Below are positions 281 to 61,016 of a DNA stretch of 64,000 nt, in pieces. The stretch spans positions 13,547 through 77,546 of the forward strand of contig JACPDY010000098.1 in the NCBI GenBank assembly GCA_016183775.1, given 5' to 3'. Position numbers and translations under genes: made by a program. This DNA is from Bacteroidota bacterium. GTDB taxonomy: Bacteria > Bacteroidota > Bacteroidia > JABDFU01. Below the pieces are notes generated by a model. It was not told the origin of the DNA and ran no database searches. It was given only the letters and a program-made list of their open reading frames with translations. Position 1 is the first letter of the stretch, and every line of letters starts with the position of its first letter.

Positions 281-294
281 ATGATTTTAATCAT
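281..294. promoter_or_regulatory. Candidate Crp/Fnr-family binding site ATGATTTTAATCAT (TGAT-N4-ATCA palindrome), ~48 bp upstream of the U32 gene.
   Basis: Perfect 14-bp palindrome seen in sequence. Same architecture recurs upstream of 8 other operons in the window. Confidence 0.45.
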
Positions 295-341
295 ATTCAT
301 TCTGCTTAATATCTGCCACATTAGAGTTCAAAAACTAAAAG

Positions 342-1577
342 ATGGGTAACATTGAACTGATGTCACCTGCAGGGTCATTTGAGTCATTGCATGCCGCTAT
401 TGAAGCAGGGGCTGATGCTGTTTATTTTGGTATAGAGCAATTGAATATGCGGGCCAGGTCAGGCAATAATTTTACTTTATATGATCTGGAAGAAATATAT
501 AAAATATGTTCCGGGAAAAAGGTAAAAACATACCTGACATTAAATACAATAATTTATGATCACGATATTTCTTTAATGAAGAAAATTGTAATGGCTGCAA
601 AGAAAAATCATATTAATGCCGTTATCGCCTGTGATCAGGCTGTTTTGGGATATGCAAAAAAGATTGGAATGCAGGTTCATATATCTACCCAGGCAAATGT
701 AAGTAACCTGGAAAGTGTACTATTCTACTCTGAATATGCTGATGCTGTTGTACTTGCCAGGGAATTAAGTTTGCGGCAGGTTGCAGATATTGTAAAGCAG
801 GTCAGAAGAAAAAACATCAAAGGCCCCTCAGGAGAGCTGATAAAAATAGAAGTATTTGTACATGGCGCGTTATGTATGGCTGTTTCCGGAAAATGCTATA
901 TGAGTTTGCATTCCCATTACGCTTCGGCAAACAGGGGAGCCTGTATTCAAAATTGCAGGAGAAGTTATATTGTAAAGGACAAGGAAGAGGAAATTGAATT
1001 TGAAATTGACAATGAGTATATCATGTCATCCAAAGATTTATGCACAATCGACTTTATTGATAAAATTATTGAGGCCGGCGTTAATATTATGAAAATTGAA
1101 GGGAGAGGACGCTCCGCTGATTATGTATATACTGCAACGAAGTGTTATCGTGAGGCCATTGATTCTTATATCAATGGAACATACAGCAAAACAGGAATTG
1201 ATAAATGGAAACATGAATTAGCCACAGTTTTTAACAGGGGCTTTTGGGAGGGCTATTACCTGGGGAAGAAAACCGGGGAATGGGCGGATACTTACGGTTC
1301 AAAAGCGACGAAAAGAAAAATATATATGGGAAAGGGAATAAAGTATTTCAGTAACAAAAAAGTCGGAGAATTTAAACTTGAGTCCGGGCAGCTATCTATA
1401 GGTAATAGTATAATGATAATAGGGCCGACAACAGGTATAATCCGCGATAAAGTAGCAGAATTACGTTTACAGGATACATCGGTTCAGTCGGTAAGCAAAG
1501 GAGCGGTTTTTTCTCTTCCGTTAAAGAAAAAAATACGTCCTTCTGATAAATTGTATAAAGTGGTTGAAGCCGAATGA
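342..1577 (+). CDS. Peptidase U32 family protein (collagenase-like, RlhA/TrhP/UbiU-type Fe-S protein).
   Basis: N-terminus MGNIELMSPAGSFESLHAAIEAGADAVYFG is typical of U32 (PrtC/YhbU/YegQ). Cys-rich segment ALCMAVSGKCYMS...CIQNCRR matches the Fe-S-binding region of this family. Confidence 0.8.
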   Translation: MGNIELMSPAGSFESLHAAIEAGADAVYFGIEQLNMRARSGNNFTLYDLEEIYKICSGKKVKTYLTLNTIIYDHDISLMKKIVMAAKKNHINAVIACDQAVLGYAKKIGMQVHISTQANVSNLESVLFYSEYADAVVLARELSLRQVADIVKQVRRKNIKGPSGELIKIEVFVHGALCMAVSGKCYMSLHSHYASANRGACIQNCRRSYIVKDKEEEIEFEIDNEYIMSSKDLCTIDFIDKIIEAGVNIMKIEGRGRSADYVYTATKCYREAIDSYINGTYSKTGIDKWKHELATVFNRGFWEGYYLGKKTGEWADTYGSKATKRKIYMGKGIKYFSNKKVGEFKLESGQLSIGNSIMIIGPTTGIIRDKVAELRLQDTSVQSVSKGAVFSLPLKKKIRPSDKLYKVVEAE

Positions 1578-1801
1578 TACGGATTATTCATCAGCGCGAT
1601 AAATGCATTGGATGTAATGCCTGCGTTGAAGCAGCCTGGTCAAGATGGAGAATGTCGCGGAAAGACGGGAAAAGTATTTTGATTGGCGGGATCAAAAAAA
1701 AATATATTTATTCGGCAGTTGTCGGCGATGACGAGCGAAGCGAAAATATTCAGGCATCCGTGAATTGCCCTGTAGGAATAATACAATTAATACAAATGTA
1801 A
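1574..1801 (+). CDS. Small ferredoxin-like protein with a single [4Fe-4S] motif (CIGCNAC...CP).
   Basis: CxxCxxC plus a distal CP, 75 aa. Start overlaps the U32 stop (ATGA), suggesting translational coupling. Confidence 0.45.
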   Translation: MIRIIHQRDKCIGCNACVEAAWSRWRMSRKDGKSILIGGIKKKYIYSAVVGDDERSENIQASVNCPVGIIQLIQM

Positions 1802-1802
1802 A

Positions 1803-2249
1803 ATGGGAATGGACAAAAAGATGGAATCCTTTATGGAAAGTCAGAAAAATTTAACCCTGTGTACGGCGGTTGATAATGCGCCTCATTGTGCAAGTTGTTT
1901 TTACGCTTATGTAAGCGAAGGCCATTTTGTTGTATTTAAATCTGATAAAAAAACACAACATGTATATAACGCATTTATTAATGATAAAGTTGCCGGCACA
2001 ATTATTCCGGATATTGATAAAACAGGAACCATAAAAGGCATTCAATTTATCGGAAAATTTATTGTGCCAACCGGAGCTTTTGCCGAACAGGTGAAAAAAA
2101 AGTATTATGGCAAATATCCTTTTGCCCTGGCGTTTGCCGGAGATTTATGGGGAATAGAATTGCAGTCGGTTAAAATGACCGACAATACGCTTGGATTTGG
2201 AAAAAAGCTGAGCTGGGAGAGATCAGTATCTGAAAAACAAACTTTATGA
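1803..2249 (+). CDS. Pyridoxamine 5'-phosphate oxidase-like FMN-binding protein (general stress protein 26 / YhbP-like).
   Basis: 148-aa protein. N-terminal LTLCT..D..PH..S.FYAY..EG.FVVF pattern is typical of the PNPOx-like split-barrel family. Confidence 0.5.
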   Translation: MGMDKKMESFMESQKNLTLCTAVDNAPHCASCFYAYVSEGHFVVFKSDKKTQHVYNAFINDKVAGTIIPDIDKTGTIKGIQFIGKFIVPTGAFAEQVKKKYYGKYPFALAFAGDLWGIELQSVKMTDNTLGFGKKLSWERSVSEKQTL

Positions 2250-2707
2250 AGAGAACGAAAAGTCCAAATGAATCGGAAACAATTATGACTGAAGTTGTTT
2301 TCCCAAATGACACTAATCCTATGGGAATTGTGCAGGGAGGAAGAATAATACAATTAATGGATATAGCTTGTGCCGTTTGCGCTCAAACACATTCGGGAAA
2401 GGTAGCTGTTACCGCTTCTATTGATAAAGTTTCCTTTAAGGAGTCTGCAAAATTAGGGGATATATTAACTGTGAAGGCGAAAATTACAAGGGCATTTACT
2501 ACTTCTATGGAGATTTATGCGGAAGTATGGGCCAAGCGCTTGCCGGATATGAAACCGTTCCTTGCAAATAAAGCCTTCTTTACATTTGTTGCTCTTGACG
2601 AGAACGCAAGGCCTACCGTCGTTATACCATTGAAACCCGTAACATCCCATGAAATAATACAATATGCCGAGGCATTGAAGAGAAGAAAGAGCAGAATAAA
2701 ACAATAA
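2246..2707 (+). CDS. Acyl-CoA thioesterase (hotdog fold, YciA-like).
   Basis: VVFPNDTNPMGIVQGGRIIQLMDIACAVCA motif is characteristic of the YciA/ACOT hotdog thioesterases. Confidence 0.75.
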   Translation: MKRTKSPNESETIMTEVVFPNDTNPMGIVQGGRIIQLMDIACAVCAQTHSGKVAVTASIDKVSFKESAKLGDILTVKAKITRAFTTSMEIYAEVWAKRLPDMKPFLANKAFFTFVALDENARPTVVIPLKPVTSHEIIQYAEALKRRKSRIKQ

Positions 2708-4176: not shown

Positions 4177-4190
4177 ATGATTCAAATCAT
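4177..4190. promoter_or_regulatory. Candidate Crp/Fnr-family site ATGATTCAAATCAT, ~28 bp upstream of the Crp/Fnr gene at 4218.
   Basis: Perfect palindrome, the same 14-mer as at 24363-24376. Confidence 0.45.
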
Positions 4191-4217: not shown

Positions 4218-4964
4218 TTGGGCATTCGATATCCGGTGCAGATGATAATTCCTTCAAACAAACAAAAAGAAGCACCTTCATGCGACAAGTGTGAATCTTC
4301 GCATAATTCTATTTTTTGTGTTTTAAACAAGGGAGAGTTAGCTGAGCTCTCAGAAAGCAAGTCATATATTTCATATAAAAAGGGGCAGATGATATTTTAT
4401 GAAGGGAATCATCCCCAGGGTTTGTATTGCATATATTCCGGAAAAGTAAAAATTCACAAGTTAGGACATGATGGGAAAGATCAGATCTTACGCCTTGCAA
4501 AAAAGGGGAATGTGATTGGGTATCGTGCATTGTTGGGCGATGATAGCTATCACGCATCGGCTACAGCAATGGAAGATTCAGTAATATGCTTCTTCCCTAA
4601 AGGGGTATATCAAAATCAAATCATTTCAAATGCCTCGCTTTCAATGCAGATTATAAGACTGCTCTCTGCCGACCTGAAATTAGCAGAACATAAAGCGATG
4701 AATATGGTACAAAAACAGGTGCGTGAACGAATTGCTGAAACTATTCTGATGTTAAAAGAGTTCTTCGGGCTTGAGTCTGATAATGCTACCATAAATACTG
4801 TTCTTACGCGGGAAAGTATCGGAAATATTGCAGGTACTACAACTGAAACTGCGATAAGAATTTTATCCGAGCTTAATAAAAATAAAACTATAGAGTTATT
4901 AGGAAAGAGAATAAAAATCCTGAATAGCAAGGAATTGATAAAAATTGCCAATATTAATGAGTAG
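4218..4964 (+). CDS. Crp/Fnr-family transcriptional regulator with an N-terminal Cys cluster (FNR-like).
   Basis: cNMP-binding-like beta-roll (FYEGNHPQGLYCIYSGKVKIHK) plus C-terminal HTH (TRESIGNIAGTTTETAIRIL). N-terminal CDKCESSHNSIFC cysteines. Confidence 0.8.
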   Translation: MGIRYPVQMIIPSNKQKEAPSCDKCESSHNSIFCVLNKGELAELSESKSYISYKKGQMIFYEGNHPQGLYCIYSGKVKIHKLGHDGKDQILRLAKKGNVIGYRALLGDDSYHASATAMEDSVICFFPKGVYQNQIISNASLSMQIIRLLSADLKLAEHKAMNMVQKQVRERIAETILMLKEFFGLESDNATINTVLTRESIGNIAGTTTETAIRILSELNKNKTIELLGKRIKILNSKELIKIANINE

Positions 4965-12646: not shown

Positions 12647-12660
12647 ATGATGCAGGTCAT
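12647..12660. promoter_or_regulatory. Imperfect Crp/Fnr-like site ATGATGCAGGTCAT (7/8 core match) in the korA / polyferredoxin divergent region.
   Basis: One mismatch (GTCA vs ATCA). Resembles the site at 34021-34034 (ATGATGCACATCAT). Confidence 0.25.
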
Positions 12661-19401: not shown

Positions 19402-19402
19402 T

Positions 19403-48224: not shown

Positions 48225-48226
48225 AA

Positions 48227-48931
48227 TTAATCGAGTTTAAGTTCATTAACTAATTTATTTACTTCAATATTTACACTTTGTTTTGCAAAAAATGAGTTGT
48301 GATGCTGTATATCTACTACAGGATCGGGAACTCCGCTAAAACTCACATTTTCAAAATCTTTCTTTAGTACAATCAGCAACGCAGAGAAAACATTCCTGTA
48401 TACATTGCCTTGATTCAACTCCGGCTGAATAATGGCTCTGTGAAGCTTTTTTAAGATTTTCATTTTCAATTCCACTCTCGCTTGCTTAAATTCACCGATC
48501 ATTTTTTCCAAACCAGGAATAAGAATTTTTACTGCGAGTTCATCTAATAACGACTGGTCGCTTGTTTTTGTGTAAAGGGTTAGCATATTGCAAATGTTAT
48601 CTGAAAGATCAGTTCCGCAATCATTTCCGGCCCGCAATTGCTCTTCCTGCATATGCAACAAGAAAGCGCCTCTTTTATAATCTTCCCCGAAGATTACAAA
48701 CCCAAGATCGAGATAGCAGATAGGCTGCACATCAAATGTCCTTGTATACAACTCTTCTCGTTCATCCTGGCTGTGAGCAGACATATAGTCAACAAAAGGC
48801 TTTAATTCGAGCGCTGCATCGGGATAATATTCCTCCAGTATTGCCATGCATTTATTTGCCATTTCAGTGTAGTCCTTGTTTGGATACCTTAGCAGATCAG
48901 CAAAAGCAATATAGTGCTTATAGTTTCTCAT
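48227..48931 (-). CDS. narJ: Nitrate reductase molybdenum cofactor assembly chaperone (NarJ/TorD family).
   Basis: Position between narH and narI. NarJ-like acidic helical protein (LYTRTFDV.P...YLDLGF). Confidence 0.8.
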   Translation of the reverse strand: MRNYKHYIAFADLLRYPNKDYTEMANKCMAILEEYYPDAALELKPFVDYMSAHSQDEREELYTRTFDVQPICYLDLGFVIFGEDYKRGAFLLHMQEEQLRAGNDCGTDLSDNICNMLTLYTKTSDQSLLDELAVKILIPGLEKMIGEFKQARVELKMKILKKLHRAIIQPELNQGNVYRNVFSALLIVLKKDFENVSFSGVPDPVVDIQHHNSFFAKQSVNIEVNKLVNELKLD

Positions 48932-48933
48932 AT

Positions 48934-50424
48934 TTATAGCCCCCTTGCAGGTGTTTCTTTAAATCCAAATCCTGTGTTACCTTTTACGTCAGCTGTATTT
49001 TCAAGCATTTCGATAGATTCCTCGCGGTGTGCAGGAGGAATAACAAAGCGTTCGTCAAAAGTTGCCAGCGCTGTTAGCCTGAAAATCGCGTCAGCAGTTT
49101 CTTTATCCATGTTCACCTCATTCATCGCCATTGAAATTTCCGCGGCATTTAAATCACCTACAGTAACTCCTCTTCTATGTAATCTCACTGCCATCAATCT
49201 CTTCATAACATCTACCACCTGTCCGGTATTTCCTGCAGAGAATAGAGACGCAAGGTATTTCATCGGTAAACGATTACTTTCTACCCCGTTCCAAAGTGAT
49301 TTGGACGTTGTATTATAAACTCCATCTGATACTGTTGCCATTGTTGGCAACAAAGCCGGCACATAGAATAGATTAGGTAATGTTCTGAACTCAGGGTGCA
49401 ATGGCAAAGCGAGTTTCCATACTTTAACAAATTTGTACACGGGAGAGTTTTGCGCCGCGGTAATTGTTGAATCGGCAATCCCATTTAGCTTAGCTTGTTT
49501 GATCACTTCCGGATCAAACGGATCAAGATATATATCCATTTGTGCGTTTACCAATTGGTCTTCCGGAGCTGCTGCCGCTGCTTCAATTTTATCCGCATCA
49601 TATAACATTACTCCTAAGTAACGAATGCGGCCTACACAAGAGTGGAAGCATGCAGGAGCTTGACCTGATTCTAACCTCGGATAGCACAATACACATTTTT
49701 CCGATTTGCCGGTATTCCAGTTGTAATAGCTTTTTTTGTAAGGACAAGCTGTTACACACATTCTCCATGCGCGGCAACGTTCCTGATTAATAAGTACGAT
49801 CCCGTCTTCACCTCTTTTGTAAAGAGCCCCCGATGGACAAGAAGCTACGCAGGCCGGATTTAAACAGTGATTGCATATTCTTGGTAAATAATGGAATGTC
49901 ATTCTTTCCAATTGAAACATTGCTTCTTGTTCAGCAGAACTAAGCTTTTGAAGATTTACATCCTGACGGGCATAGTCAATTGAACCACCCATATCATCAT
50001 CCCAATTCGGACCTGATTGCACATCCATATGCTCACCCGTAACAAGAGAAACAGCTGTTGCAGTAGGTTGATCATCACCCTCCGGAGCTGTGAACAGATC
50101 CTGATACTTGTATGTCCACGGCTCATAATAGTCGTCAAGTACAGGCATATGTGGGTTGTGAAAAATATTTTTCAAACCTTTGAACTTGCCGGCCCCTTTC
50201 AGGGAAACGGTATCTCCGTTTTTTTCCCAACCACCTTTGTATATATCCTGGTTTTCCCACTTGGTAGGATAACCGGTTCCTGGCTTTGTTTCCACATTGT
50301 TCCACCACATGTATTCGGCACCTTTCCTGTCAGTCCAGATATTTTTGCAGGCAATAGAACAAGTATGACACCCGATACATTTATCAAGGTGAAAAACCAT
50401 TGAGACTTGAGATCTTACGTCCAT
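48934..50424 (-). CDS. narH: Respiratory nitrate reductase beta subunit (Fe-S).
   Basis: Four Cys clusters (CIGCHTCSIACKN, CNHCLNPACVASCP, CRAWRMCVTACPY, CVLCYPR...C) and the canonical NarH N-terminus. Confidence 0.95.
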   Translation of the reverse strand: MDVRSQVSMVFHLDKCIGCHTCSIACKNIWTDRKGAEYMWWNNVETKPGTGYPTKWENQDIYKGGWEKNGDTVSLKGAGKFKGLKNIFHNPHMPVLDDYYEPWTYKYQDLFTAPEGDDQPTATAVSLVTGEHMDVQSGPNWDDDMGGSIDYARQDVNLQKLSSAEQEAMFQLERMTFHYLPRICNHCLNPACVASCPSGALYKRGEDGIVLINQERCRAWRMCVTACPYKKSYYNWNTGKSEKCVLCYPRLESGQAPACFHSCVGRIRYLGVMLYDADKIEAAAAAPEDQLVNAQMDIYLDPFDPEVIKQAKLNGIADSTITAAQNSPVYKFVKVWKLALPLHPEFRTLPNLFYVPALLPTMATVSDGVYNTTSKSLWNGVESNRLPMKYLASLFSAGNTGQVVDVMKRLMAVRLHRRGVTVGDLNAAEISMAMNEVNMDKETADAIFRLTALATFDERFVIPPAHREESIEMLENTADVKGNTGFGFKETPARGL

Positions 50425-50489
50425 AATTTTAAAATTTAGATTTTAGATTTGAGCGGGAGGTTTTGTCTCACATCTCACATCTATTTATA

Positions 50490-53400
50490 TTAAAATTCTA
50501 CTTTCTCCATTCTTCTTACTAAAACATGTGTGTCACGGTTTACTCCTACCGGTCCCCAGTAATTGAAGTGGTAAGAAAACTGTCCATAACCACCAGCCAT
50601 TAAACTTGGTTTTAAGTGAATGCGGGTAAAGCTATTGTGCCCTCCGGCTCTTCTCCCGCCACGTTCTTGCGATTTTGGAACAGTATATGTCCTTTCGGGT
50701 GAGTGATAAACAATACAAACACCGTTCGGAATACGAGCACTTACACAAGCCCGGGTACAATAAACACCATGGTCGTTATAAACTTCAACCCAATCGTTAT
50801 CTTTTACTCCAATTGATGCTGCATCTTCTTCACTCATCCAACAAGGTTCCATACCACGGGATAGAGTTAACATACGCAATGTATCCCCGTAAGTTGAGTG
50901 AATGTGCCATTTACCGTGAGGTGTTAACACATTAAACATTTTTGCTTTCCCATCATTAATTGTCTTTCTTAAATCACCATACGCTTTTGGTGTTGGGGAT
51001 GGTTTATAAGTTGGAAGGTGTTCTCCAAACGCAATATACATATCGTGATCAAGATAAAATGCCTGACGTCCGGTTAGTGTTCTCCATGGAACCCAGCAAT
51101 CCACATTATAAGTGTATGCACAATATGCTCTTCCATTGTCCATTAACCCTGACCAAAGCGGTGAGTTATTGTAACGTCTTGGCTGCGATTGTAAATCCTT
51201 ATAATCGATACGAACATCTTTGCTTCCGATACCATGTTGAACGATTGGCATGCCTATTTTTTTCTCCATGTTCTCATAAGCACGAACCGTCAACTTTCCA
51301 TTTGTTAAAGAAGAAAGCCTCAATACTGCATTCACTGCTTCAACATCTTCCTTCAAAGAAGGATATTCAACACCATTAACTTTTTGCACATGACGCTTGT
51401 CCTCTCCCATTTCCTTGTATACATCATCCGCCATAAAGTTTACACCATGAGCTCCCAATGTATTGGTATTCAGATTCGGACCTAAAGCAATATATTTGTT
51501 ATAAATCTGAGTATAATCTCTTTCAACAATTGCAATTTTGTGCATTGTTTTTCCAGGAATAGGCTCACACTCCCCTTTATACCAATCCAGTAATTTTGGT
51601 TGTGAAATCTCATCCACACTATCATGTGACAACGGTATGTTCACAACATCTTTTACAGGAGTTGGCATATAACCTTTTGCCATTTCACTTACTGTTTTTG
51701 CAAGCAATTGAAATATCTGCCAGTCGCTTTTCGACTCCCACACCGGTGCAACTGCGGCTGATAACGGGTGAATGAAGGAATGCATATCAGTAGAATTGAT
51801 ATCTGCCTTCTCGTACCACGATGCTGTTGGAAGAACTATGTCAGAATATAGTGCAGAAGTATCCATTCGGAAATTGATATCCACAATCAGATCCATTTTT
51901 CCCTTTGGTGCTTCCCTCCATAATATTTCTGTTACTTTATCCTGAGCAACTTCATCCGCAATTTTATTTGTGTGCGTACCTAAATAGTGGTCCAGCATAT
52001 ACTCATGTCCTTTTGCGCTGGCCATTAACGCATTTCCTCTCCAGATAAACCAGTTACGAGGAAAATTCACTTCGTTGTCCGGGTCAGCACAGGAATACTT
52101 TATTTCCCTTGATTTCAGTTTTTCAACTACATAATTTTTAATCTCATCATCCGTCTTGGCTCCAACTGCTGCTGCATCCGTAGCTATTGTTAAATTATTT
52201 TTATCATACTGTGGATAAAAAGGCATCCAACCATTGCGAACCGCCATTGCAACCATATCTGCTGTGTGCAAATTTCCCAATTTACTTCCCGCAGGAATGC
52301 TGTTGTATTCAGCCTGGTTACCATCATACCTCCATTGGTCGGAATTCATGTAGTGCCATATAGGAGCCTGCTGCAAACGATTGGCGCCTTGCCAGTCTTT
52401 AGCTGCCATAATTGTTCCCCATGAATCAACCGGTGCAAGTTTTTCCTGGCCTACATAGTGATTCATCCCGCCCCCATTTACACCATTGCAGCCGGTAAGC
52501 ATTTGGGTCATAATTGCAGAACGATACATCAGGTTATTATGGAACCAGTGGCAAATTGCAGCACCAACAATCACCATACATTTTCCTTTTGTAATTTCTG
52601 CGGTGCTACCCCACTCGCGTGCAAGTTGAAGAACTGTTTCCTGGCCAATTCCGGTAAATATTTCCTGCCATGCCGGAGTGTATGCCTGATTTTTGTCGTT
52701 ATAATCTTTAGGGTATTCTCCAGGCAATCCACGACCTACGCCATATTGGCCAAAAGTCAAGTCGTAAACGGTAACAGTCGGAATTCTTTTGCCATCAGCA
52801 GTTTCCACATACTTAACAGGAACTCCGCGTACTGATTTTTTATTTAAACCGAATTCAGTAAACTCAACTTGTAACACATCATCACTTTTTCCAAGGAAAG
52901 TTAATGTTGGGTCAAATTCTTCATTTGTTTCCCCATCTTCGAATTTAAGGTTCCAGTTACCTATTTTACCTTTATCCCAGCGTTGACCCATTGAACCTTT
53001 TGGCATGACCGGCTTTCCGGTTTTACTATCAACATTCAGAAATTTCCAATCACCATTCTCTGTATTTTTATATTTTGCAAGTCGGTTAGCTCTTACCAGT
53101 TTCATTGGAAGATAATGATCGCCCTGCTTTTCCAATTCAACAAGGAACGGACAATCTGTGTAACGCTTTACATAATCAATAAAGTAAGGCACCTGCCTGT
53201 CGGCATGGAATTCTTTAAGAATTACATGAGTAACTGCCATCCAGAATGCGCCATCGCTGCCGGCATGTACCGGAATCCACTGGTCAGCATGCTTAGCCAC
53301 CATACTAAAGTCCGGCGACATAACCACTGTTTTAGTTCCATTGTGTTTTGATTCAGAGAAAAAGTGAATATCTGGTGTACGTGTCATACCAAGGTTAGCA

Positions 53401-54113
53401 CCCATAGACACACAGAATTTAGAGTTGTACCAATCCGCACTTTCGCAAACATCTGTTTGCTCTCCCCAGATTTCAGGATAAGCAGTTGGCAAGTCGCAGT
53501 ACCAATCATAAAAACTAAGGTTAACTCCGCCTAACAATTGCAGGTATCGTGCTCCTGAAGCATAGCTCAACATTGACATTGCTGGAATCGGCGAAAATCC
53601 GATCACTCGGTCAGGTCCATATTTTTTAATTGTATATAAATTAGCAGCAGCGATAAGTTCAACGGCTTCTTCCCATCTTACCCGTCTGAATCCGCCTTTG
53701 CCTCTTGCGCGTTGGTATCTTTTTCTTTTTTCGGGATTGCTTTGTAAACTTTCCCAGGCCTTTATAGGGTCGCCCCCTACAGCTCTTTTTTCATTTTGAA
53801 AAAGGTCAAGCAAAGCGCCACGCATCAGCGGGTACTTAACACGGATAGGGCTGTATAGGTACCAGGAATAGGATATACCTCTTTGACACCCCCTCGGCTC
53901 ATAGGGTGGGAGAGAAGCTTCAAGCAAAGGGTAATCCAGTGCCTGCGTTTCCCATACTACTATGCCATCTTTTACGTGGATATTCCAGGAACATCCACCT
54001 GTACAATTTACACCGTGTGTACTGCGTACAACTTTATCATATTGCCAGCGATTACGGTAAAACTCTTCCCATTTACGGGTTTGCGGTGATATTATATCTT
54101 CGATCCAGCTCAT
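50490..54113 (-). CDS. narG: Respiratory nitrate reductase alpha subunit (Mo-bisMGD). No Tat signal, so cytoplasm-facing nNar type.
   Basis: 1207 aa. N-terminal [13 protein letters not shown]0-cluster motif is typical of NarG. Confidence 0.95.
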
Positions 54114-54141
54114 AGTTATTTGATTTTAATATTCGTTACGA

Positions 54142-55008
54142 TTAGATTGATTTGATCTGCCTGTTATAAATGTCTTTTTTTACAGTGAATCTTTTTCTGC
54201 TATACCATAGAATGAAAATCATAATGAGGATTCCCCCTAACCCCAAAACACCTCCGTACAATAATGGATTTGTGGTGCTTACCAGCTGATTCGGTTTATC
54301 TTTATCAATTTTATTAAGGAATGCTATAAGAGCCGCAATTTCCGTTTCCGTCAACGGCTTTTCTTTATAGGATTGCGTCATTGCCGGAAAAGGGGGTGCT
54401 CCTAAAATTCCTTGCAATCCGGCATCTCCGCCTAAGCGGCTATACGAAGCAGTTAAATCCTTTGCAAGCAAGCCGCCAGGCATAACACCGTTGTAATTAA
54501 CATTGTGACAGGAGATACAAGCAGGACCGCCATTTGCGAGCGCATAACTTCCAATGAAAATATTCTTACCTGTTTCAATTTGTTCCGGGGTGGCATTAGC
54601 TGATGCATCAGGGAGTGCTTCCTTTTTAGTGGTGTCGGCGGATGCACTTGCCGGTTCCGGAGTGCTCCTGCCAGCGATAAACGCATAAATTGACTTGATA
54701 TCAGCATCAGGAAGATGAGCCTGATCGGGCATCACAATCCCGCCAAACTCATCAAAAATTGCCTTTGCATCGGCATCTCCGCTCTTGATAAATTCTTGTG
54801 AGGATTTTGTCCATTTCAATAGCCACTCCTCAGAGCGTTTGGTCGTCACACCCATAAGATCAGGCCCTACCATTCGTCCCCCTCCCACTTTGTGACAAAC
54901 TCCGCAGTTTTGTTTGAATATCGCTTCTCCGTTTTGAGCACTCACCCCGTCGGTAAAAAGCATGAAGCACAGAGATATTGAAGCTAAATATTTTTTTATT
55001 TTTTCCAT
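54142..55008 (-). CDS. Membrane-anchored dihaem cytochrome c immediately upstream of narG (NarC-like).
   Basis: Signal peptide MEKIKKYLASISLCFMLFTDGVSAQ. Two CxxCH motifs (CGVCH, CISCH) and a C-terminal TM helix. Start taken at internal Met 55008; the ORF opens at 55125. Confidence 0.75.
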   Translation of the reverse strand: MEKIKKYLASISLCFMLFTDGVSAQNGEAIFKQNCGVCHKVGGGRMVGPDLMGVTTKRSEEWLLKWTKSSQEFIKSGDADAKAIFDEFGGIVMPDQAHLPDADIKSIYAFIAGRSTPEPASASADTTKKEALPDASANATPEQIETGKNIFIGSYALANGGPACISCHNVNYNGVMPGGLLAKDLTASYSRLGGDAGLQGILGAPPFPAMTQSYKEKPLTETEIAALIAFLNKIDKDKPNQLVSTTNPLLYGGVLGLGGILIMIFILWYSRKRFTVKKDIYNRQIKSI

Positions 55009-55134
55009 GTTATACATGTTTGAAAGTTTCATATTTCTTTTATCTGTCTTCATAGTAATTGAGATATTATCTTTTAAAGAACCTGTGAATAACATTACCT
55101 GCAACAAATGTATTTGCGATAACAATATTCAACT

Positions 55135-55148
55135 ATGATTAATATCAT
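55135..55148. promoter_or_regulatory. Candidate Crp/Fnr-family site ATGATTAATATCAT, ~127 bp upstream of the narC-like/narGHJI operon (divergent from the crp/fnr gene at 55644).
   Basis: Perfect TGAT-N4-ATCA palindrome, an FNR-box-like position for an anaerobically induced nar promoter. Confidence 0.5.
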
Positions 55149-55643
55149 ATTTTTAAAAGACATTGATCACGTGCACAAAATAGCTTCTGGAATTCAGTGT
55201 GGACCAGCATTTGGCAGGTTTCATCAAAAAGAATTAAAATCGTTCAATTCTATACATTTATTGATCCCTGAATGCAGTATTATTCTCAACAGAAAAGGTA
55301 AAATGGAGAAGTGTGCTAATCGCATGGAATTATTACAATACACGAAGGCACAAAATTGTTAGAACTGACAAGTGTTCTCAATGATAAACTCATCTATACC
55401 TGGCGGGTTTTTATAATACGATACGGACAGCTATATTATGATTGCGGTCATTGTACTGCTTTTTACACTCATTTACTTTTGAGCAAAAGATAACAAACAT
55501 GTATCGGAACGGCTTAAAAAAATAATGAATAAAGGGGCTGTGCATTCCCGATACCTGATCTCTGAGGCATAGCTTATACGTACCAGCGCTTGGTTAAATA
55601 TTGAGATAATTACAAATCCTGAGAAGTGAACTGACCAAAAAAG

Positions 55644-56387
55644 ATGAAACTCGATTGCACGAATTGTTCCCCTGAAGAATGCTATATTAATAAATACTGT
55701 AACAGTCAGTCGATCGGAATAATGGCGCAAGCAAAAAGTGTTATTCGGTATAAAAAGAATCAATATATCTTTCGTGAAGGGAATCCGGTGCAAGGCATGT
55801 ACATCATATATTCCGGGAAAGTAAAAGTGCTCAGTACCGGCTTTAATGATAAGGCTCAGATAATACGTATCGCAAGACCGGGATACCTGTTAGGGCATAG
55901 GGGATTTGGCGATAAGTTTTATCAGATATCGGCCGTGGCGATTGAGGATTCTACTATTTGTTTTATTGAAGCAGGCATTTTCACTAAGCTTCTTAAAAGC
56001 GACCCGGAGTTAACCTATCAGCTGATGCTCTTCTACGCCAACGAACTGCGGTTGGCTGAGTCAAGAATGAAAAACCTTGCTCAAATGACAGTGATGGAAA
56101 AATCAGCGGAATCTCTTTTGCTTTTGATCCAGATCTTTGGGGTAAGAAAGGGAAACGATGTTGTTCTGAATACTGTTTTAACCCGAAAAGACATGGCCGA
56201 GTTGGCCGGGTTGAGTCCCGAACAATTAACAAGATGCTTCTCGGAGCTCAGGGAGGAAAAGATAATTCGCATAGACGGGAAAACAATAACGATTCTGCAA
56301 CCGCAAATTTTGTTCAAACTTATTTCACCATATTATACAGTACAAAATTTAAAAGAAGGTCAGTCTTCCGATGTCTTTTCTCTTTAG
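55644..56387 (+). CDS. Crp/Fnr-family transcriptional regulator with an N-terminal Cys cluster (FNR-like oxygen/redox sensor candidate).
   Basis: N-terminal CTNCSPEECYINKYC, a cNMP-binding-like domain, and HTH (TRKDMAELAGLSPEQLTRCFSELR). Confidence 0.8.
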   Translation: MKLDCTNCSPEECYINKYCNSQSIGIMAQAKSVIRYKKNQYIFREGNPVQGMYIIYSGKVKVLSTGFNDKAQIIRIARPGYLLGHRGFGDKFYQISAVAIEDSTICFIEAGIFTKLLKSDPELTYQLMLFYANELRLAESRMKNLAQMTVMEKSAESLLLLIQIFGVRKGNDVVLNTVLTRKDMAELAGLSPEQLTRCFSELREEKIIRIDGKTITILQPQILFKLISPYYTVQNLKEGQSSDVFSL

Positions 56388-56404: not shown

Positions 56405-56418
56405 ATGATTTAGATCAT
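56405..56418. promoter_or_regulatory. Candidate Crp/Fnr-family site ATGATTTAGATCAT upstream of narK.
   Basis: Perfect palindrome ~100 bp upstream of the narK-usp ATG. Confidence 0.45.
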
Positions 56419-56448: not shown

Positions 56449-56462
56449 TGATTAATATCATT
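56449..56462. promoter_or_regulatory. Second candidate site GTGATTAATATCAT upstream of narK.
   Basis: TGAT-N4-ATCA core ~60 bp upstream of the ATG. Tandem sites spaced ~44 bp centre to centre. Confidence 0.4.
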
Positions 56463-56520: not shown

Positions 56521-58260
56521 TTGGAACTTATGGCAAACTTTAAAACATTTCTAAAAGCAGGTCACCCTCCCACTTTGTTTTCTGCCTTCATTTATTTTGA
56601 TTTTTGTTTTGCAATATGGGTGCTTAACGGAGCGATGGCTCCATTTATCAGCGAGGAGTTCCATTTAACTCCGGCTCAAAAAGGATTTATGATCTCTGTT
56701 CCCATACTTGCAGGAGCGATCATGAGATTTCCTTTAGGTGTGTTGTCGCAATATATAGGAAGAAAATGGGCGGCTATGGTTGAGATGTCTTTAATATTCA
56801 TGGCGCTCGTTTATGGCTATTTTATGGTTGATACCTATTCCGAGGTCATTAATATGGGAATTCTGTTAGGTATCGCCGGGGCAAGTTTTGGTGTTGCGCT
56901 TTCGTTAGGGTCCGGATGGTTTCCCCCCAAATATAAGGGATTAGCAATGGGGATAGCCGGAGCCGGAAATAGCGGTACCGTATTGGCAATGCTTTTTGCT
57001 CCGCCATTAGCCGTTAAATATGGATGGCAGGCTGTGTATGGTTTTGGCGCCGCATTTATGCTGCTTCCAATGGTAGTGATGTTAATTTTTGCAAAAGAAC
57101 CTCCGGATAGAGAAAAGCAATCATTGAAAGAACATTTAGCTTGCCTGTTTGAACGCGATGGATGGACATTTAATTTGATATACATCATCACATTCGGTGG
57201 TTTTATTGGGTTGTCAAATTTTTTACCAACATATTACTACGATCAGTTTCATGTATCAAAAGTAGAAGCGGGCCAACTAACCATGCTGGCCGCTTTAATG
57301 GGAAGCGCAATAAGAGTTGTGGGAGGGTGGGCGTCTGACAGATGGGGAGGCATTAATACACTTACCGCAATATTTGGGTTTGTTATTTTAACAATGGTGT
57401 TGGCAAGTTTCCAGCCTTCTATCGGAATATCAACCGCTTTATTCATGTTTTGTTTTGCCGCGTTGGGCGCCGGTAATGGCGCCTTGTTCCAATTAGTTCC
57501 GTTACGCTGGCCATTAACCACGGCTGTTGCGGGAAGTATGATCGGGGAGATCGGCGCGTTAGGAGGCAGCTTCATTCCCAACGCCATGGGGATATCAAAA
57601 CAAAGCACCGGTACTTTTGCCTGGGGTTTCATCGCCTTCGCTGTTTTAGGTGTAGTTGCGTTCGTCATACTGAGGATTGCGCAAAAAAAATGGACAAAAA
57701 CCTGGGTTGACAAAGGCGGCAAAGCCCGTATACGAAAAGAAGAAATTGAGTTTGAAATTCACACTCACATAGCGGAAGAAGGCGTTGAAATAATAAAACC
57801 AACTTATGCTAAAGGGGAATTTGCATACAGAACAATTATATACCCGGTAGGCAATTCGGAGCTGGCTGATAAGGCACGGGAACAAGCGGCATACTTAGCT
57901 AAATCGACCGGTTCTAAATTGCTACTATTATATGTAAATGAAAAATTTCACAGTACAGGATTGCTTGCATCGGACTCGCCGGAATGGTCGAAGATCAGGG
58001 AAGCATGGATCGATGAAGGGAAGGAATTACTTATTAACGAAGCAAAAAAATTAAAAAAATTGAATGTAAGCAATATTGAAGCCGTATTTGGCCAGGGAGA
58101 TGTGGCATCCGAAATAATTACCATAGCGAAAGAAAGAAGTGCGGAACTTATTATTCTTGCCAGTCATATTGCATCTCCTTTAGGAAAACTATTGATGGGA
58201 AGCCGAACATATAGCGTATTTAAAGAAGCGCCTTGTCCTGTATTAAGAATTGTACGATAA
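56521..58260 (+). CDS. narK: Nitrate/nitrite porter (MFS, NNP family) fused to a C-terminal universal stress protein (UspA) domain.
   Basis: 12-TM MFS with NNP signature-like GIAGAGNSGT. C-terminal ~150 aa (TIIYPVGNSELADKA...LLLLYVN...ILASH...GSRTYSV) is UspA-like. Confidence 0.8.
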   Translation: MELMANFKTFLKAGHPPTLFSAFIYFDFCFAIWVLNGAMAPFISEEFHLTPAQKGFMISVPILAGAIMRFPLGVLSQYIGRKWAAMVEMSLIFMALVYGYFMVDTYSEVINMGILLGIAGASFGVALSLGSGWFPPKYKGLAMGIAGAGNSGTVLAMLFAPPLAVKYGWQAVYGFGAAFMLLPMVVMLIFAKEPPDREKQSLKEHLACLFERDGWTFNLIYIITFGGFIGLSNFLPTYYYDQFHVSKVEAGQLTMLAALMGSAIRVVGGWASDRWGGINTLTAIFGFVILTMVLASFQPSIGISTALFMFCFAALGAGNGALFQLVPLRWPLTTAVAGSMIGEIGALGGSFIPNAMGISKQSTGTFAWGFIAFAVLGVVAFVILRIAQKKWTKTWVDKGGKARIRKEEIEFEIHTHIAEEGVEIIKPTYAKGEFAYRTIIYPVGNSELADKAREQAAYLAKSTGSKLLLLYVNEKFHSTGLLASDSPEWSKIREAWIDEGKELLINEAKKLKKLNVSNIEAVFGQGDVASEIITIAKERSAELIILASHIASPLGKLLMGSRTYSVFKEAPCPVLRIVR

Positions 58261-58286
58261 TAATTAATTAACTAAATAATAAAATT

Positions 58287-59630
58287 ATGGCAACATGGCT
58301 AGAAAAATGGACACCTGAAGACAATAGTTTTTGGGAAGCACAAGGCAGTAAGATCGCCTGGCGAACACTTACAGTAACAACATTTGCTCTGATACTTTCA
58401 TTTGCCACCTGGTTTATGATGAGCGCCATAGTAACAAAACTTCCCGGCATTGGTTTTAAATTTGATAAGGATCAATTATTCTGGCTGGCTGCTATGCCTG
58501 GATTAGCGGCAGGCTTATTGCGGATAGTGCATACGTTTTTGCTCCCGATCTTCGGATCGCGACACGTAATTACAATCTCAACGATCATTAAACTAATTCC
58601 TGCTGTTGGACTGGGCTTGGCGGTTATGGATCCCGCAACTCCTTTTTGGGTATTTATGATCATTGCGTTTACGGCCGGCTTCGGCGGCGGGGATTTTTCT
58701 TCGTACATGCCAAGCACTAGTTTATACTTTCCGAAAAGATTACAGGGAACAGCCTTAGGTATCCAGGCCGGAATTGGAAATTTTGGGGTTAGCGTTGCTC
58801 AATTTATGACTCCTGCAATGCTTGGCATTGCAACATATGGCGCGGCACAAGTATTCACTAAAGTAAATCCTAAAACAAAAGAAATAGTTGGCACCTCAGA
58901 AATATTTCTTCAAAGTGCGGCATTCTGGTACGTTCCCTTATTGATTATTTTGGCAATCGCGTCATGGTTTTTAATTAAAAGTATCCCGGTAAAAGCCTCA
59001 TTTAAAGAACAGCTTGATATTTTTTCGGACAAACATACCTGGTTTTGTACAATAACATACGTGATGACCTTCGGCGGTTTTTCGGGATTAGCCGCTATTT
59101 TTCCGTTGATGATTAAAACAGTTTACGGCGATTTTGCTAATGCTCCGGATCCTTTAAAATATGCGTTTCTTGGACCATTGATCGGCGCCGGCAGCCGGGT
59201 TTTATTTGGATTTATTGCCGATAAAGTAGGTGGAGCCGTATTAACAACATTAACGGGTATAGCATTGATCGCAGGTTGCGTTGCTATGGTTCAAATGGGA
59301 TTGCTGACACCAACATCCGTTGAACAATTTCCAACCTTTCTGTATTTAATGCTTTTCTTGTTCTTCATTACCGGCATGGGCAATGCGGCTACTTTCCGTC
59401 AATACCCCATCATTTTTGGCCACAACCCACGCCAGGCCGCCGGTGTAATTGGCTTTTCGGCTGCCATAGCCGCATTTGGCCCTTTTATTTTCGCAACTTC
59501 TGTTAGCAGTATAATAAAAAGTACAGGGAATGCAAATGGATTTTTTTATGCAATAGCGGCATTTTTTGTACTGGCAACTATAATTAACTGGTGGTATTAC
59601 AATAGAAAAGGATGTGAAAGGCCAAGCTGA
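58287..59630 (+). CDS. narK: Nitrate/nitrite porter (MFS, NNP family), second tandem copy.
   Basis: 12-TM MFS. GFGGGDFSS and GIQAGIGNFGVS resemble NNP signatures. Confidence 0.85.
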   Translation: MATWLEKWTPEDNSFWEAQGSKIAWRTLTVTTFALILSFATWFMMSAIVTKLPGIGFKFDKDQLFWLAAMPGLAAGLLRIVHTFLLPIFGSRHVITISTIIKLIPAVGLGLAVMDPATPFWVFMIIAFTAGFGGGDFSSYMPSTSLYFPKRLQGTALGIQAGIGNFGVSVAQFMTPAMLGIATYGAAQVFTKVNPKTKEIVGTSEIFLQSAAFWYVPLLIILAIASWFLIKSIPVKASFKEQLDIFSDKHTWFCTITYVMTFGGFSGLAAIFPLMIKTVYGDFANAPDPLKYAFLGPLIGAGSRVLFGFIADKVGGAVLTTLTGIALIAGCVAMVQMGLLTPTSVEQFPTFLYLMLFLFFITGMGNAATFRQYPIIFGHNPRQAAGVIGFSAAIAAFGPFIFATSVSSIIKSTGNANGFFYAIAAFFVLATIINWWYYNRKGCERPS

Positions 59631-59665
59631 TTTTCGTAAAATATGATTCTAAAAAAACACTAACT

Positions 59666-60949
59666 ATGAAAACAAAATTAAAAGGCGCAGTGCTTACAGC
59701 TTTGATAGCAACAACAGCACTAACAGCAAATGCACAAATGACATTGACTGGAGAAATAAGGCCCAGGTTTGAATACAGGCACGGATTTAAAGCCCTCTCC
59801 GACTCCGCGATGGATGCGGCCATGTTTGTTTCTCAGCGTACACGTATAAACTTTGGATATAGTAATGATAATTTTAAAACGAAAGTTGTCTTTCAGGATG
59901 TACGTATCTGGGGCAGCCAATCTCAATTGAATTCCACGGATGGATTGACTGCCATACATGAAGCCTGGGCTGAATACAATTTTTCCAAGAAAGTGGCGGC
60001 TAAATTTGGCCGTCAGGAAATCGTTTATGATGATGAACGAATTTTCGGGGGATTGGGATGGGCACAGCAAGGCAGAAAGCATGATGCGGCTTTGTTTAAA
60101 TACAATGACAGCACGTTCATATTACATGTGGGATTTGCATATAATCAGGATATGGAACAATTTAAAACAACCAAATATACTATTGCAAGCAGCTATAAAG
60201 CCATGCAATATTTATGGCTAAACAAAAAATGGCCGAAACTTGAATTAAGCTACCTGGCTCTTACAAATGGACAGCAGTCTTCTGTGACAAATAGTGTTTC
60301 AAGGTATAGTTTTATGACCGGGCCGCATATACAATATAAATCAGGTAAATTAAGTTTGGTTGGAAAGGGATATTACATGGGTGGAATGGATGTCGCGTTA
60401 AATGATATGCAGGCTTACCTGGCAGGAATAGATGTCTCCTACTCAATAACTCCAAAGGTGTCAGCTACATTAGGCTATGAACTTCAGTCAGGACAAAGTC
60501 AAACCGATACCACAAAAGCGTATAAAAAAATCAACCATTCATTCAATCCGCTATTCGGAACGAATCACGCTTTCAATGGCTATATGGATTACTTTTATGT
60601 TGGAAATCATATTAATAGTGTCGGATTACAGGATATATGGCTCAGATTAAAATACAAAACCGAAAAATGGTGGATTACCGCGGATGCCCATATGTTTAAT
60701 GCCGCCGCCGATATTCTTGATACAAAAGAATTTGCGAAATCAGGAAAATATACGGCCATGAATGCCAATTTGGGAACAGAGCTTGATGTTACATTCGCGT
60801 ATAATCTGGCTCCTAATGTTGTGCTGCAGGGAGGTTATTCTCAAATGTTTGGAACAGATAGCATGAAAGCTATAAGGGGTGGAAAAACAAATACCCCAAG
60901 TAATTGGGCATATCTCATGCTCACCTTCAGGCCCAATTTCTTAAAATAA
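59666..60949 (+). CDS. Outer-membrane beta-barrel protein (porin-like) following narK genes.
   Basis: Signal peptide ...ALTANAQ. Alternating amphipathic beta-strand pattern and aromatic-rich C-terminus (LMLTFRPNFLK). Confidence 0.5.
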   Translation: MKTKLKGAVLTALIATTALTANAQMTLTGEIRPRFEYRHGFKALSDSAMDAAMFVSQRTRINFGYSNDNFKTKVVFQDVRIWGSQSQLNSTDGLTAIHEAWAEYNFSKKVAAKFGRQEIVYDDERIFGGLGWAQQGRKHDAALFKYNDSTFILHVGFAYNQDMEQFKTTKYTIASSYKAMQYLWLNKKWPKLELSYLALTNGQQSSVTNSVSRYSFMTGPHIQYKSGKLSLVGKGYYMGGMDVALNDMQAYLAGIDVSYSITPKVSATLGYELQSGQSQTDTTKAYKKINHSFNPLFGTNHAFNGYMDYFYVGNHINSVGLQDIWLRLKYKTEKWWITADAHMFNAAADILDTKEFAKSGKYTAMNANLGTELDVTFAYNLAPNVVLQGGYSQMFGTDSMKAIRGGKTNTPSNWAYLMLTFRPNFLK

Positions 60950-60966
60950 CTCAGCCGAAACTGATT

Positions 60967-60998
60967 AAATAGCCTATTTATCCGGGGGCTATTTTTAT
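60967..60998 (+). terminator. Rho-independent terminator candidate after the porin-like gene (AAATAGCC-loop-GGCTATTT followed by TTT).
   Basis: 8-bp perfect inverted repeat with a 12-nt loop and a T-run, 18 bp after the stop codon. Confidence 0.45.
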
Positions 60999-61002
60999 AA
61001 TA

Positions 61003-61016
61003 TGATTGATATCATT
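61003..61016. promoter_or_regulatory. Candidate Crp/Fnr-family site ATGATTGATATCAT upstream of the hemerythrin-moaA operon.
   Basis: Perfect palindrome ~47 bp upstream of the probable hemerythrin start at 61063. Confidence 0.45.

Follow-up and report, generated by a model that had tools for sequence, protein, structure and literature searches.

Genes for nitrate respiration and for the anaerobic degradation of aromatic compounds lie on one 64,000-nucleotide stretch of DNA from an uncultured Bacteroidota bacterium (assembly GCA_016183775.1, contig JACPDY010000098.1, positions 13,547 to 77,546; the whole stretch is called the window, and positions are given in its own numbering). A palindrome with the core TGAT-N4-ATCA recurs in front of both groups, which raises the question whether it is the operator of a common anaerobic regulator, and of which kind. 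The characterised Crp/Fnr proteins of Bacteroidota (HcpR, PgRsp, CrpPg and BT4338) are not iron-sulphur (Fe-S) oxygen sensors, and our literature searches found no described FNR box from this phylum, publication elsewhere being possible. A first, sequence-only reading had proposed a Crp/Fnr-family regulon, and this proposal is supported here: the palindrome is enriched and conserved, it keeps one distance to the -7 box, and the regulators carry FNR-like residues. The palindrome is very probably the operator of a dimeric Crp/Fnr-family activator that would define an anaerobic regulon. The data support a regulon of the FNR type with a slightly shifted operator (A as outer base, Ile for Ser212 in the regulator) and a Bacteroidetes promoter architecture.

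Distribution of the palindrome in the window

The gene map was drawn from open reading frames (ORFs) and Pfam matches, and five starts were corrected where ORFs opening with TTG or GTG ran into the promoter (corrected ATGs: crp1, 4242; MobA-like gene, 24314; narC, 55053; narK, 56530; hemerythrin gene, 61063). After this correction, intergenic DNA accounted for 5443 of the 64000 bases (8.5%), with 66% A+T. A pattern search returned 13 copies of the TGAT-N4-ATCA core, compared to an average of 2.38 and never more than 7 in dinucleotide shuffles, and 8 copies of the extended form ATGAT-N4-ATCAT, for which 0.24 were expected. Nine of the 13 cores were intergenic, where dinucleotide-preserving shuffles of the intergenic segments gave 0.21 (Poisson P ~2e-12); for the extended form, 8 intergenic sites stood against 0.02 expected (Poisson P ~2e-18). 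The distribution of core sites between intergenic and coding DNA corresponded to an odds ratio of 24 (p = 1e-7, Fisher's test).

All nine perfect intergenic palindromes listed in the sequence-only reading were recovered, and the genes it had named beside them agreed with the ORFs and with Pfam and NCBIfam. Seven of its coordinates were exact, whereas the narK-proximal palindrome had to be placed at 56448-56461 and the one before the hemerythrin gene at 61002-61015 instead of 61003-61016. The A...T flanks it had ascribed to all sites were seen at eight; the narK-proximal site is flanked by G...T. One 14-mer, ATGATTCAAATCAT, indeed occurs twice (4177 and 24363), and the imperfect copy reported at 12647-12660 (ATGATGCAGGTCAT) has one mismatch. 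The caveat that copies might also exist within genes was justified: four perfect cores are intragenic (Table 1), which is the chance level for coding DNA (1.9 expected), and A...T flanks were absent from all four. Two of them, in crp1 (4541-4552) and in crp3 (63429-63440), are the same fully palindromic 12-mer, TGATAGCTATCA, which encodes GDDSYHA in Crp1 and ELIAISE in Crp3, at unrelated protein positions. This is probably a coincidence, though it means that two of the four intragenic hits have one spacer.

The consensus tATGAT-N4-ATCAT was taken from a frequency table of 41 unique promoter-type sites. The base 5' of TGAT was A in 32 sites, C in 6, G in 3 and T in none, the base 3' of ATCA was T in 39, and conservation ended one to two bases beyond the half-sites. 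The match to classical FNR half-sites claimed earlier thus holds for the TGAT-N4-ATCA core but not for the outer T.

Conservation and promoter geometry

Comparative loci (numbered L, and proteins P) were collected by protein searches with Crp2, one of the Crp/Fnr paralogues of the window, and by contig look-ups, plus one metagenome scan with BcrC; a scan of genome contigs with Crp2 gave three loci, one of them close. The closest relatives of the window are metagenome-assembled genomes (MAGs) of Bacteroidia, a protein identical to Crp1 is on record under 'Bacteroidetes bacterium', and the window itself has 39% G+C, a SusC-like TonB receptor and a type IX secretion system (T9SS) sorting domain. 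The Crp2 homologues gave access to nar loci in synteny with the window, where regulator identity ranges from 86% down to 56%, and to the differently arranged L008 (52%). The gene stands between the narC and narK promoters, in synteny, in L001, L004, L006, L010 and L012. Perfect sites before narC, narK and hemerythrin-moaA (or moaA) were found in L001, L004, L006, L008 and L010, whose regulators have 52-86% identity, and in the last four of these loci further genes are preceded by such sites too; in L001, the closest relative, all three sites are kept and substitutions are confined to the N4 spacer. Intergenic and coding sites numbered 6 and 2 in L004, 4 and 0 in L006, 5 and 0 in L008, and 5 and 2 in L010. 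The non-syntenic L002 and L003 held one and two core matches, respectively.

The metagenome scan with BcrC gave 80 loci (59-85% identity, 921 kb). In these, 52 of 79 unique sites lay outside ORFs of at least 120 residues, that is, in the 8.3% of bases that such ORFs leave uncovered (odds ratio 21, p = 7e-37), and A...T-flanked sites were divided into 39 outside and 4 inside. The comparison of intergenic with coding DNA suggested as a check of the sequence-only reading therefore gave enrichment in the window and in the 80 loci alike. A perfect site stood at most 160 bp upstream of the bcrC homologue in ~20 of 79 metagenome loci, where ~0.4 of 79 would be expected from base composition by an estimate of our own, made without a tool. 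The distance from this site to the ATG of bcrC was 54.5-62.5 bp in the nearest relatives, similar to the window. Orthologues of crp1 in L096 and L100 have one-mismatch sites 65.5 and 60.5 bp upstream, the latter with a perfect -7 box, and in L101, where a Crp1 orthologue is encoded beside narGHJI-narC, the narC promoter region holds two perfect sites.

Towards the gene, most palindromes are followed by an 8-mer with TTTG as its last four bases, and the first base of this 8-mer is exactly 29.5 bp from the centre of the palindrome; narC, crp1, bcrC, narK and the hemerythrin gene are among the examples. In the window and the Crp2 loci taken together, TTTG was present at +33.5 from the centre in 18 of 44 gene-facing orientations and in 0 of 22 facing away, and no other offset was seen more than 3 times. 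The independent bcrC loci reproduced this, with TTTG at +33.5 in 23 of 156 orientations and at most 5 at each other offset; the genes downstream of the geometry-fitting sites include bcrC, hemerythrin, NarK-type transporters and the Mo-hydroxylase. The 8-mer corresponds to TAnnTTTG, the -7 box of Bacteroidetes sigma-A, whose place in the promoter is -12 to -5 (PMC9723704). Taking this position together with the fixed spacing of 29.5 bp, the palindrome centre would fall at -41.5, the classical position of a class II FNR or CRP activator, with the transcription start predicted from the -7 box. The spacing of the palindrome to the Bacteroidetes -7 box is a new result of this work. Since the site centre is 54.5-59.5 bp from the ATG of the U32, crp1, bcrC, MobA-like, LuxR and hemerythrin genes, the leaders at these six promoters would be 13-18 nucleotides long, in keeping with the short leaders typical of Bacteroidetes.

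For two of the palindromes the distances to the neighbouring genes allowed an assignment. The narC site, which had been thought to be shared with the divergent crp/fnr gene, is 88.5 bp from the narC start and 502 bp from crp2; we therefore assign it to narC, with a putative transcription start at ~55100. Its combination of site and box is repeated in L001, L004 and L010. The palindrome at 30924 probably serves the LuxR-type regulator, because the receptor gene on its other side is 210 bp away. The site upstream of crp1 is likely to be autoregulatory. The tandem sites before narK are kept, with a spacing of 43-44 bp, in L001, L004 and L010, and the arrangement seen before the hemerythrin gene recurs in L006 (box GTAATTTG) and, before moaA, in L008 (GTTATTTG). 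In L004 the narC-crp2 intergenic region, which has one site in the window, contains three TGAT-N4-ATCA sites at intervals of 19 and 22 bp (9748-9800), of which the middle one alone is spaced from the -7 box of narC as expected for -41.5.

Among one-mismatch sites of the window, only those at 55439 and 12648 were retained as candidates, for their flanks or -7 box. The former, part of a block kept in L001, is a candidate, and only that, for a cascade link to crp2; the latter is a weak candidate for a functional site.

Table 1. Palindromes, degenerate and intragenic sites, regulators and predicted target operons of the window
Feature	Position	Strand	Sequence	-7 box (position)	Centre to ATG	Remarks
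U32 palindrome	282..293 (14-mer 281-294)		TGATTTTAATCA	CACATTAG (317-324), weak	54.5 bp (ATG 342)	before U32, ferredoxin-like, YhbP, thioesterase and beta-eliminating-lyase genes
crp1 palindrome	4178..4189		TGATTCAAATCA	CATCTTTG (4213-4220)	58.5 bp (ATG 4242)	before crp1
bcrC/MobA-like palindrome	24364..24375		TGATTCAAATCA	TTATTTTG (24399-24406, +); TACTTTCG (24340-24333, -)	54.5 bp (bcrC, ATG 24424); 55.5 bp (MobA-like, ATG 24314)	midway between divergent MobA-like/XdhC/4-hydroxybenzoyl-CoA-reductase-like operon and bcrCBA
LuxR palindrome	30924..30935		TGATATAAATCA	CAGTTTAG (30900-30893), imperfect	59.5 bp (LuxR ATG 30870)	between LuxR-type response regulator (-) and TonB-dependent receptor (+)
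bcrD palindrome	34022..34033		TGATGCACATCA	TTTCTTTA (34057-34064), imperfect	130.5 bp (ATG 34158)	before bcrD, CoA ligase, dehydratase-like, thiolase, had, oah, dch operon
narC palindrome	55136..55147		TGATTAATATCA	TACATTTG (55112-55105), consensus	(ATG 55053)	upstream of narC-narGHJI (minus strand)
narK palindrome, distal	56406..56417		TGATTTAGATCA			~-84.5; 43 bp upstream of proximal site
narK(-Usp) palindrome, proximal	56449..56460		TGATTAATATCA	GTCCTTTG (56484-56491)	(ATG 56530)
hemerythrin palindrome	61003..61014		TGATTGATATCA	GTTATTTG (61038-61045)	54.5 bp (ATG 61063)	before hemerythrin-moaA
degenerate site	55439..55450	+	TGATTGCGGTCA	TACTTTTG (55474-55481), good		one mismatch; upstream of crp2
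degenerate site	12648..12659		TGATGCAGGTCA	TTTA-type only	>250 bp from both start codons	between 2-oxoacid:ferredoxin oxidoreductase operon and Fer4/TPR gene
intragenic core	4541					inside crp1
intragenic core	57176					inside narK
intragenic core	58463					inside second MFS gene
intragenic core	63429					inside crp3
crp1	4242..4964	+				FNR-like regulator; Pfam cNMP_binding + HTH_Crp_2
crp2	55644..56387	+				between narC and narK; Cys cluster Cx2Cx4Cx5C + Cys122 equivalent
crp3	62792..63451	+				adjoins moaA; without Cys cluster
narC (cytochrome c), narGHJI	47499..55053	-				respiratory nitrate reductase (Pfam)
narK-Usp fusion, second NarK-family transporter, porin	56530..60949	+				target operon
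bcrC, bcrB, bcrA	24424..28516	+				class I benzoyl-CoA reductase (NCBIfam)
bcrD, CoA ligase, dehydratase-like, ApbA-activase fusion, thiolase, had, oah, dch, 3-hydroxyacyl-CoA dehydrogenase	34158..46213	+
MobA-like, XdhC, SDR, Mo-hydroxylase (alpha/gamma fusion), FAD subunit	18469..24314	-				Pfam

A further stretch of conserved DNA was observed between the proximal narK site and the start codon. It reads CAAATCTGAAC.T.CTTTGACGTGAAATA.TAGTGTA, is near-identical in the window (56461-56530) and in L001 (10819-10888), and is better conserved than the intergenic DNA around it. A second operator could be present in this stretch, for instance that of a regulator for nitrate or nitrite.

The Crp/Fnr paralogues and the probable reader of the palindrome

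Pfam and alignment confirmed the three Crp/Fnr paralogues announced by the sequence-only reading, two of them with Cys clusters. Crp1, Crp2 and Crp3 each combine a cNMP_binding-like sensor domain with a C-terminal HTH_Crp_2 domain. The best NCBIfam match of all three is Fnr (PRK11161), with 105, 74 and 87 bits, well short of the cut-off of 228. Solved structures of FNR, CRP and DNR are among their matches, and the best structure for each is CrpPg (PG0396, PDB 2GAU).

Crp1 has a CxxC-x8-C motif, a Cys aligned to Cys122 of FNR and the recognition helix TTETAIR, compared to TVETISR in E. coli FNR. Its second-best solved structure is the FNR of Aliivibrio fischeri (E = 3e-21), with the N-terminal region aligned. 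More than 120 clusters with an identity of 57% or higher make up the Crp1 family; they stem from MAGs of Bacteroidota and from others that bear the label 'Chlorobi'. Within it, the equivalents of Cys20 and Cys23 and the third N-terminal Cys are near-invariant, the Cys122 equivalent is invariant, and the helix T-T-E-T-x-I-R is invariant or nearly so. Glu209 and Arg213 of the FNR helix contact DNA, and their equivalents are kept. The Crp2 family is narrow, with the helix PEQLTR, and the positions equivalent to Glu209 and Arg213 vary in its orthologues (EQLIK in P0002, AQITK in P0014); the deposited gene call of Crp2 is 26 residues shorter. Crp3 has the helix YETVIR, of the same type as Crp1, and the same gene with this helix is found beside moaA in L008; its match to the DNR structure is weak (PDB, E = 1.5e-7). 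In place of the FNR helix motif E--SR, Crp1 and Crp3 thus have E--IR and Crp2 has E--TR. Taken together, Crp1 is most likely the master regulator that binds the palindrome, and Crp3 probably shares the box.

Orthologues of crp1 were often directly followed by a second Crp/Fnr gene (L099, 10001-13902; L100, 9000-11551), and in L100 a Crp/Fnr gene also lies directly upstream. The surroundings in L099 and L100 include haem-copper oxidase or NorB-like genes and cytochrome c genes. Clusters of paralogous regulators near respiratory genes seem to recur in the Crp1 clade.

In the proposed mechanism, a dimeric Crp/Fnr activator would bind (t)ATGAT-N4-ATCAT(a), centred at -41.5 at most target promoters. 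The bound palindrome would stand in for the -33 element, 29.5 bp before the first base of the -7 box, and in this class II geometry the regulator would contact RNA polymerase directly. The CxxC-x8-C motif of Crp1 and its central Cys would hold an oxygen-labile [4Fe-4S] cluster, so that dimer formation and DNA binding would be limited to anaerobic conditions. Under these the protein would activate narC-narGHJI and narK for nitrate respiration, hemerythrin-moaA for the supply of molybdenum cofactor, the locus of the U32-type oxygen-independent hydroxylase, the LuxR-type response regulator, and the oxygen-sensitive benzoyl-CoA reductase pathway together with the 4-hydroxybenzoyl-CoA-reductase-like enzyme. 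Crp1 would also activate its own gene and probably crp2, and Crp3, sharing the box, would produce a situation resembling the ANR/DNR arrangement of pseudomonads. In this scheme we infer the transcription starts, activation instead of repression, the Fe-S cluster, oxygen as the signal and the binding paralogue.

A number of observations weigh against this interpretation. L012 has no perfect narC site; its one intergenic site lies before an MFS transporter gene, and two copies are coding. L014 and L015, with a Crp homologue 43% identical to Crp2, are not syntenic and, like L002 and L003, gave no useful information; L014 has no intergenic site. A perfect site is missing before most bcrC homologues of the metagenome loci. 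One-mismatch sites in the window show no overall intergenic enrichment (7 intergenic, 50 coding), which would mean that the protein tolerates little deviation or that part of the weak sites are spurious. The -7 boxes of the U32 (ATTAG), LuxR (TTTAG), bcrD (CTTTA) and MobA-like (TTCG) promoters are imperfect. Nor is Crp1 a canonical FNR: its NCBIfam Fnr score is below the cut-off, its third N-terminal Cys is displaced by 3 residues (CxxC-x5-C in FNR) and Ser212 is replaced by Ile. Finally, the sequence data do not separate Crp1 from Crp3 or Crp2 as the binding protein.

This last point bears on the possibility, which we consider unlikely though worth serious weighing, that the box is read mainly by Crp3 or Crp2 and that the signal is nitric oxide, nitrite or nitrate instead of oxygen directly, as for DNR, NnrR or NarR. 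In Paracoccus, the NarR protein is encoded next to narK-narG. Here crp2 lies between the narC and narK promoters, which hold 3 of the 9 sites, in a synteny kept in five loci, and Crp3 shares the E-T-x-I-R helix of Crp1, lacks a Cys cluster and adjoins moaA both in the window and in L008. The very similar boxes of FNR and DNR proteins (PMC8510549) also favour a reader other than Crp1. However, L012 encodes P0014, with its altered Glu209/Arg213 positions, and yet keeps the site before the MFS transporter gene; the two perfect sites of the L101 nar promoter neighbour a Crp1 orthologue and not Crp2; and some of the genes preceded by the box (bcr, U32 and LuxR) have no relation to nitrogen oxides. 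Use of the box by several paralogues would be compatible with a Crp/Fnr activator regulon headed by Crp1. It is distinctly improbable that the bound protein is a repressor or dual regulator, acting for instance by aerobic repression. Some promoters are indeed repressed by proteins of the FNR family. In Bacteroides, BT4338 both activates and represses (PMC6989115), and the additional narK site ~43 bp upstream and the three clustered sites in the L004 narC region could be seen in this light. A palindrome that lies upstream of the -7 box without overlapping it, at one fixed spacing and replacing the -33 element, is nevertheless the signature of an activator-dependent promoter.

That the palindrome has nothing to do with Crp/Fnr proteins, and is the site of an unrelated dimeric regulator, an alternative-sigma element, the remnant of a repeat or mobile element, or an artefact of AT-rich composition, appears highly implausible. 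The A+T content of the intergenic DNA would speak for such an artefact, but shuffling this DNA yields 0.21 sites where 9 are observed. Moreover, a 12-bp inverted repeat with a 4-bp spacer at -41.5 is typical of Crp/Fnr dimers, and the core is that of FNR, with a single base in each half-site setting it apart from the BT4338 box, which has experimental support. An origin from a repeat or mobile element was rejected, as the conserved bases reach no further than one or two positions beyond the half-sites. So was an explanation at the RNA level: the window contains no Rfam families or tRNAs, and a stem of 4-5 bp without a T-run is not a terminator. A Fur box was dismissed for its different half-site spacing.

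A wider hypothesis concerns the Crp1 clade as a whole, and we hold it only tentatively, at somewhat short of an even chance. The clade, including MAGs that carry the NCBI label 'Chlorobi bacterium', may represent Bacteroidota-specific true oxygen-sensing FNRs, marked by CxxC-x8-C...C and E-T-x-I-R, with an operator that is ATGAT and never TTGAT, placed at -41.5 and working with this group's unusual sigma-A, in replacement of the -33 element. Crp1 would then stand at the top of a cascade to Crp2 and Crp3 that couples nitrate respiration to aromatic degradation.

Relation to known systems and predicted target genes

The system shares with E. coli FNR (TTGAT-N4-ATCAA; class II at narG and narK) the TGAT-N4-ATCA core, the predicted -41.5 position and the logic of its targets, which comprise nitrate reductase, the nitrate transporter, molybdenum cofactor synthesis and U32-type anaerobic hydroxylases. 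Crp1 also has the domain architecture of FNR and the equivalents of Cys20, Cys23, Cys122, Glu209 and Arg213. In addition to the changes in the Cys motif and at Ser212, the two systems differ in the outer base of the half-site, which is T in the E. coli box and mostly A, never T, here, and in the partner element, a sigma-70 -10 box in E. coli and the Bacteroidetes -7 box TAnnTTTG in the window.

Control of benzoyl-CoA reductase by FNR-type proteins has precedents. AadR of Rhodopseudomonas palustris is an FNR-family activator of benzoyl-CoA reductase genes. In Azoarcus sp. CIB the FNR-family protein AcpR, at -41.5, is required for anaerobic benzoyl-CoA reductase expression (PMC6678401). The FNR-type box before bcrCBA and before the bcrD operon is similar, whereas AcpR belongs to another phylum and a bzd-type reductase; here the reductase is of the Thauera-type bcr kind and the box also serves nitrate-respiration genes. 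No benzoyl-CoA-specific repressor such as BzdR was seen, no search having been aimed at one.

Within Bacteroidota, a closely similar box is that of BT4338 (MalR/Cur) of Bacteroides thetaiotaomicron, wwwTATGTTnTAnAACATAwww (PMC6989115). It has the same 16-bp layout, TATGxT-N4-AxCATA, with the outer TA and the A before TG, and differs in the half-site, which is TGTT there and TGAT here (TATGAT-N4-ATCATA). BT4338 responds to carbon limitation and acts on sugar-utilisation genes, not on respiration. Crp1 homologues are often labelled 'polysaccharide utilization system transcription regulator' by JGI. Five proteins so named (P0037, P0051, P0056, P0059 and P0114), which we took as BT4338-type while the BT4338 sequence itself was not aligned, are ~40% identical to Crp1 and have the helix TTSNAIR, compared to TTETxIR in Crp1. 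The common A-I-R end may go with the common outer A, and Glu-Thr versus Ser-Asn with TGAT versus TGTT. CrpPg of Porphyromonas gingivalis works independently of a ligand, falls into no named subfamily and lacks a defined box (PMC12040651); it is a Bacteroidota Crp/Fnr protein like Crp1-3, but with an S-N-A-I-R-type helix and without a Cys cluster. A metagenome study modelled the Crp/Fnr proteins of Ignavibacteria, Flavobacteriales and Saprospiraceae as MalR-like and reported no evidence of denitrification control (PMC8510549). Our comparison suggests that such modelling and labels have overlooked a distinct FNR-like clade.

The coexistence of several paralogues with and without an Fe-S Cys cluster recalls ANR/DNR of Pseudomonas aeruginosa and FnrP/NNR/NarR of Paracoccus. 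As in ANR/DNR, very similar boxes before nitrogen-oxide respiration genes are probably read by more than one paralogue here, possibly in a cascade via the degenerate crp2 site. Differences are that two of the three paralogues have Cys clusters, that nir, nor and nos are absent from the window, and that the hierarchy here is a predicted one.

In summary, the control logic is that of the textbook, and what is gained is reach and annotation instead of principle, for a phylum previously without a characterised case of this logic. The element tATGAT-N4-ATCATa at 29.5 bp from TAnnTTTG offers a testable operator and promoter model for anaerobic control in Bacteroidota and their uncultured kin. It could be used to predict anaerobic regulons in MAGs, and could correct the 'polysaccharide utilization regulator' label and the annotation of Crp1-type proteins as MalR-like carbon sensors. 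The predicted arrangement indicates that class II activator geometry is retained despite a sigma factor and promoter elements unlike those of Proteobacteria. It also suggests a way in which nitrate respiration, molybdenum cofactor supply and the oxygen-sensitive benzoyl-CoA pathway could be coordinated in an uncultured member of the Bacteroidota.

Regarding the target genes, four proteins of the aromatic cluster scored above their NCBIfam cut-offs (given in brackets): BcrC with 461 bits (421), BcrB with 697 (487), Had with 445 (339) and Oah with 591 (464). With equivalog cut-offs exceeded by these four, we regard the cluster as a real class I (Thauera-type) benzoyl-CoA pathway. BcrA with 436 bits (578), BcrD with 308 (313) and Dch with 224 (292) were best hits below cut-off, and the 4-hydroxybenzoyl-CoA-reductase-like Mo enzyme reached 819 bits on TIGR03194, below its cut-off of 995. 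The presence of benzoyl-CoA and 4-hydroxybenzoyl-CoA-reductase-like genes beside narGHJI suggests a nitrate-respiring degrader of aromatic compounds. The gene bcrD is ~5.6 kb apart from bcrCBA. In BcrA (472 residues), the BcrAD_BadFG Pfam match spans residues 6-455 against a profile of 271 positions, which suggests a large insertion. Within the bcrD operon, positions 36745-39788 encode a second HGD-D-type dehydratase/reductase subunit followed by a fusion of an ApbA (ketopantoate-reductase-like) domain with a BcrAD-type activase ATPase; this fusion, of 609 residues, is unusual and is also present in L008.

The U32-family gene is related to TrhP and UbiU and is followed by a ferredoxin-like ORF of 75 residues (1574-1801). 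Further along, a beta-eliminating lyase of the tyrosine phenol-lyase/tryptophanase family is encoded directly 5' of the Cys-cluster Crp gene, in the window (2719-4098) as in L008 (8398-9777), and it is possible that this enzyme feeds phenolics into the 4-hydroxybenzoyl-CoA/benzoyl-CoA route. The NarK-family transporter has a C-terminal Usp domain (56530-58260), a fusion kept in L001, L004, L006 and L010. Unrelated to the motif though situated amid the anaerobic genes, positions 14894-16978 encode a secreted protein with a T9SS C-terminal domain and with lysyl-oxidase and Ig-like domains.

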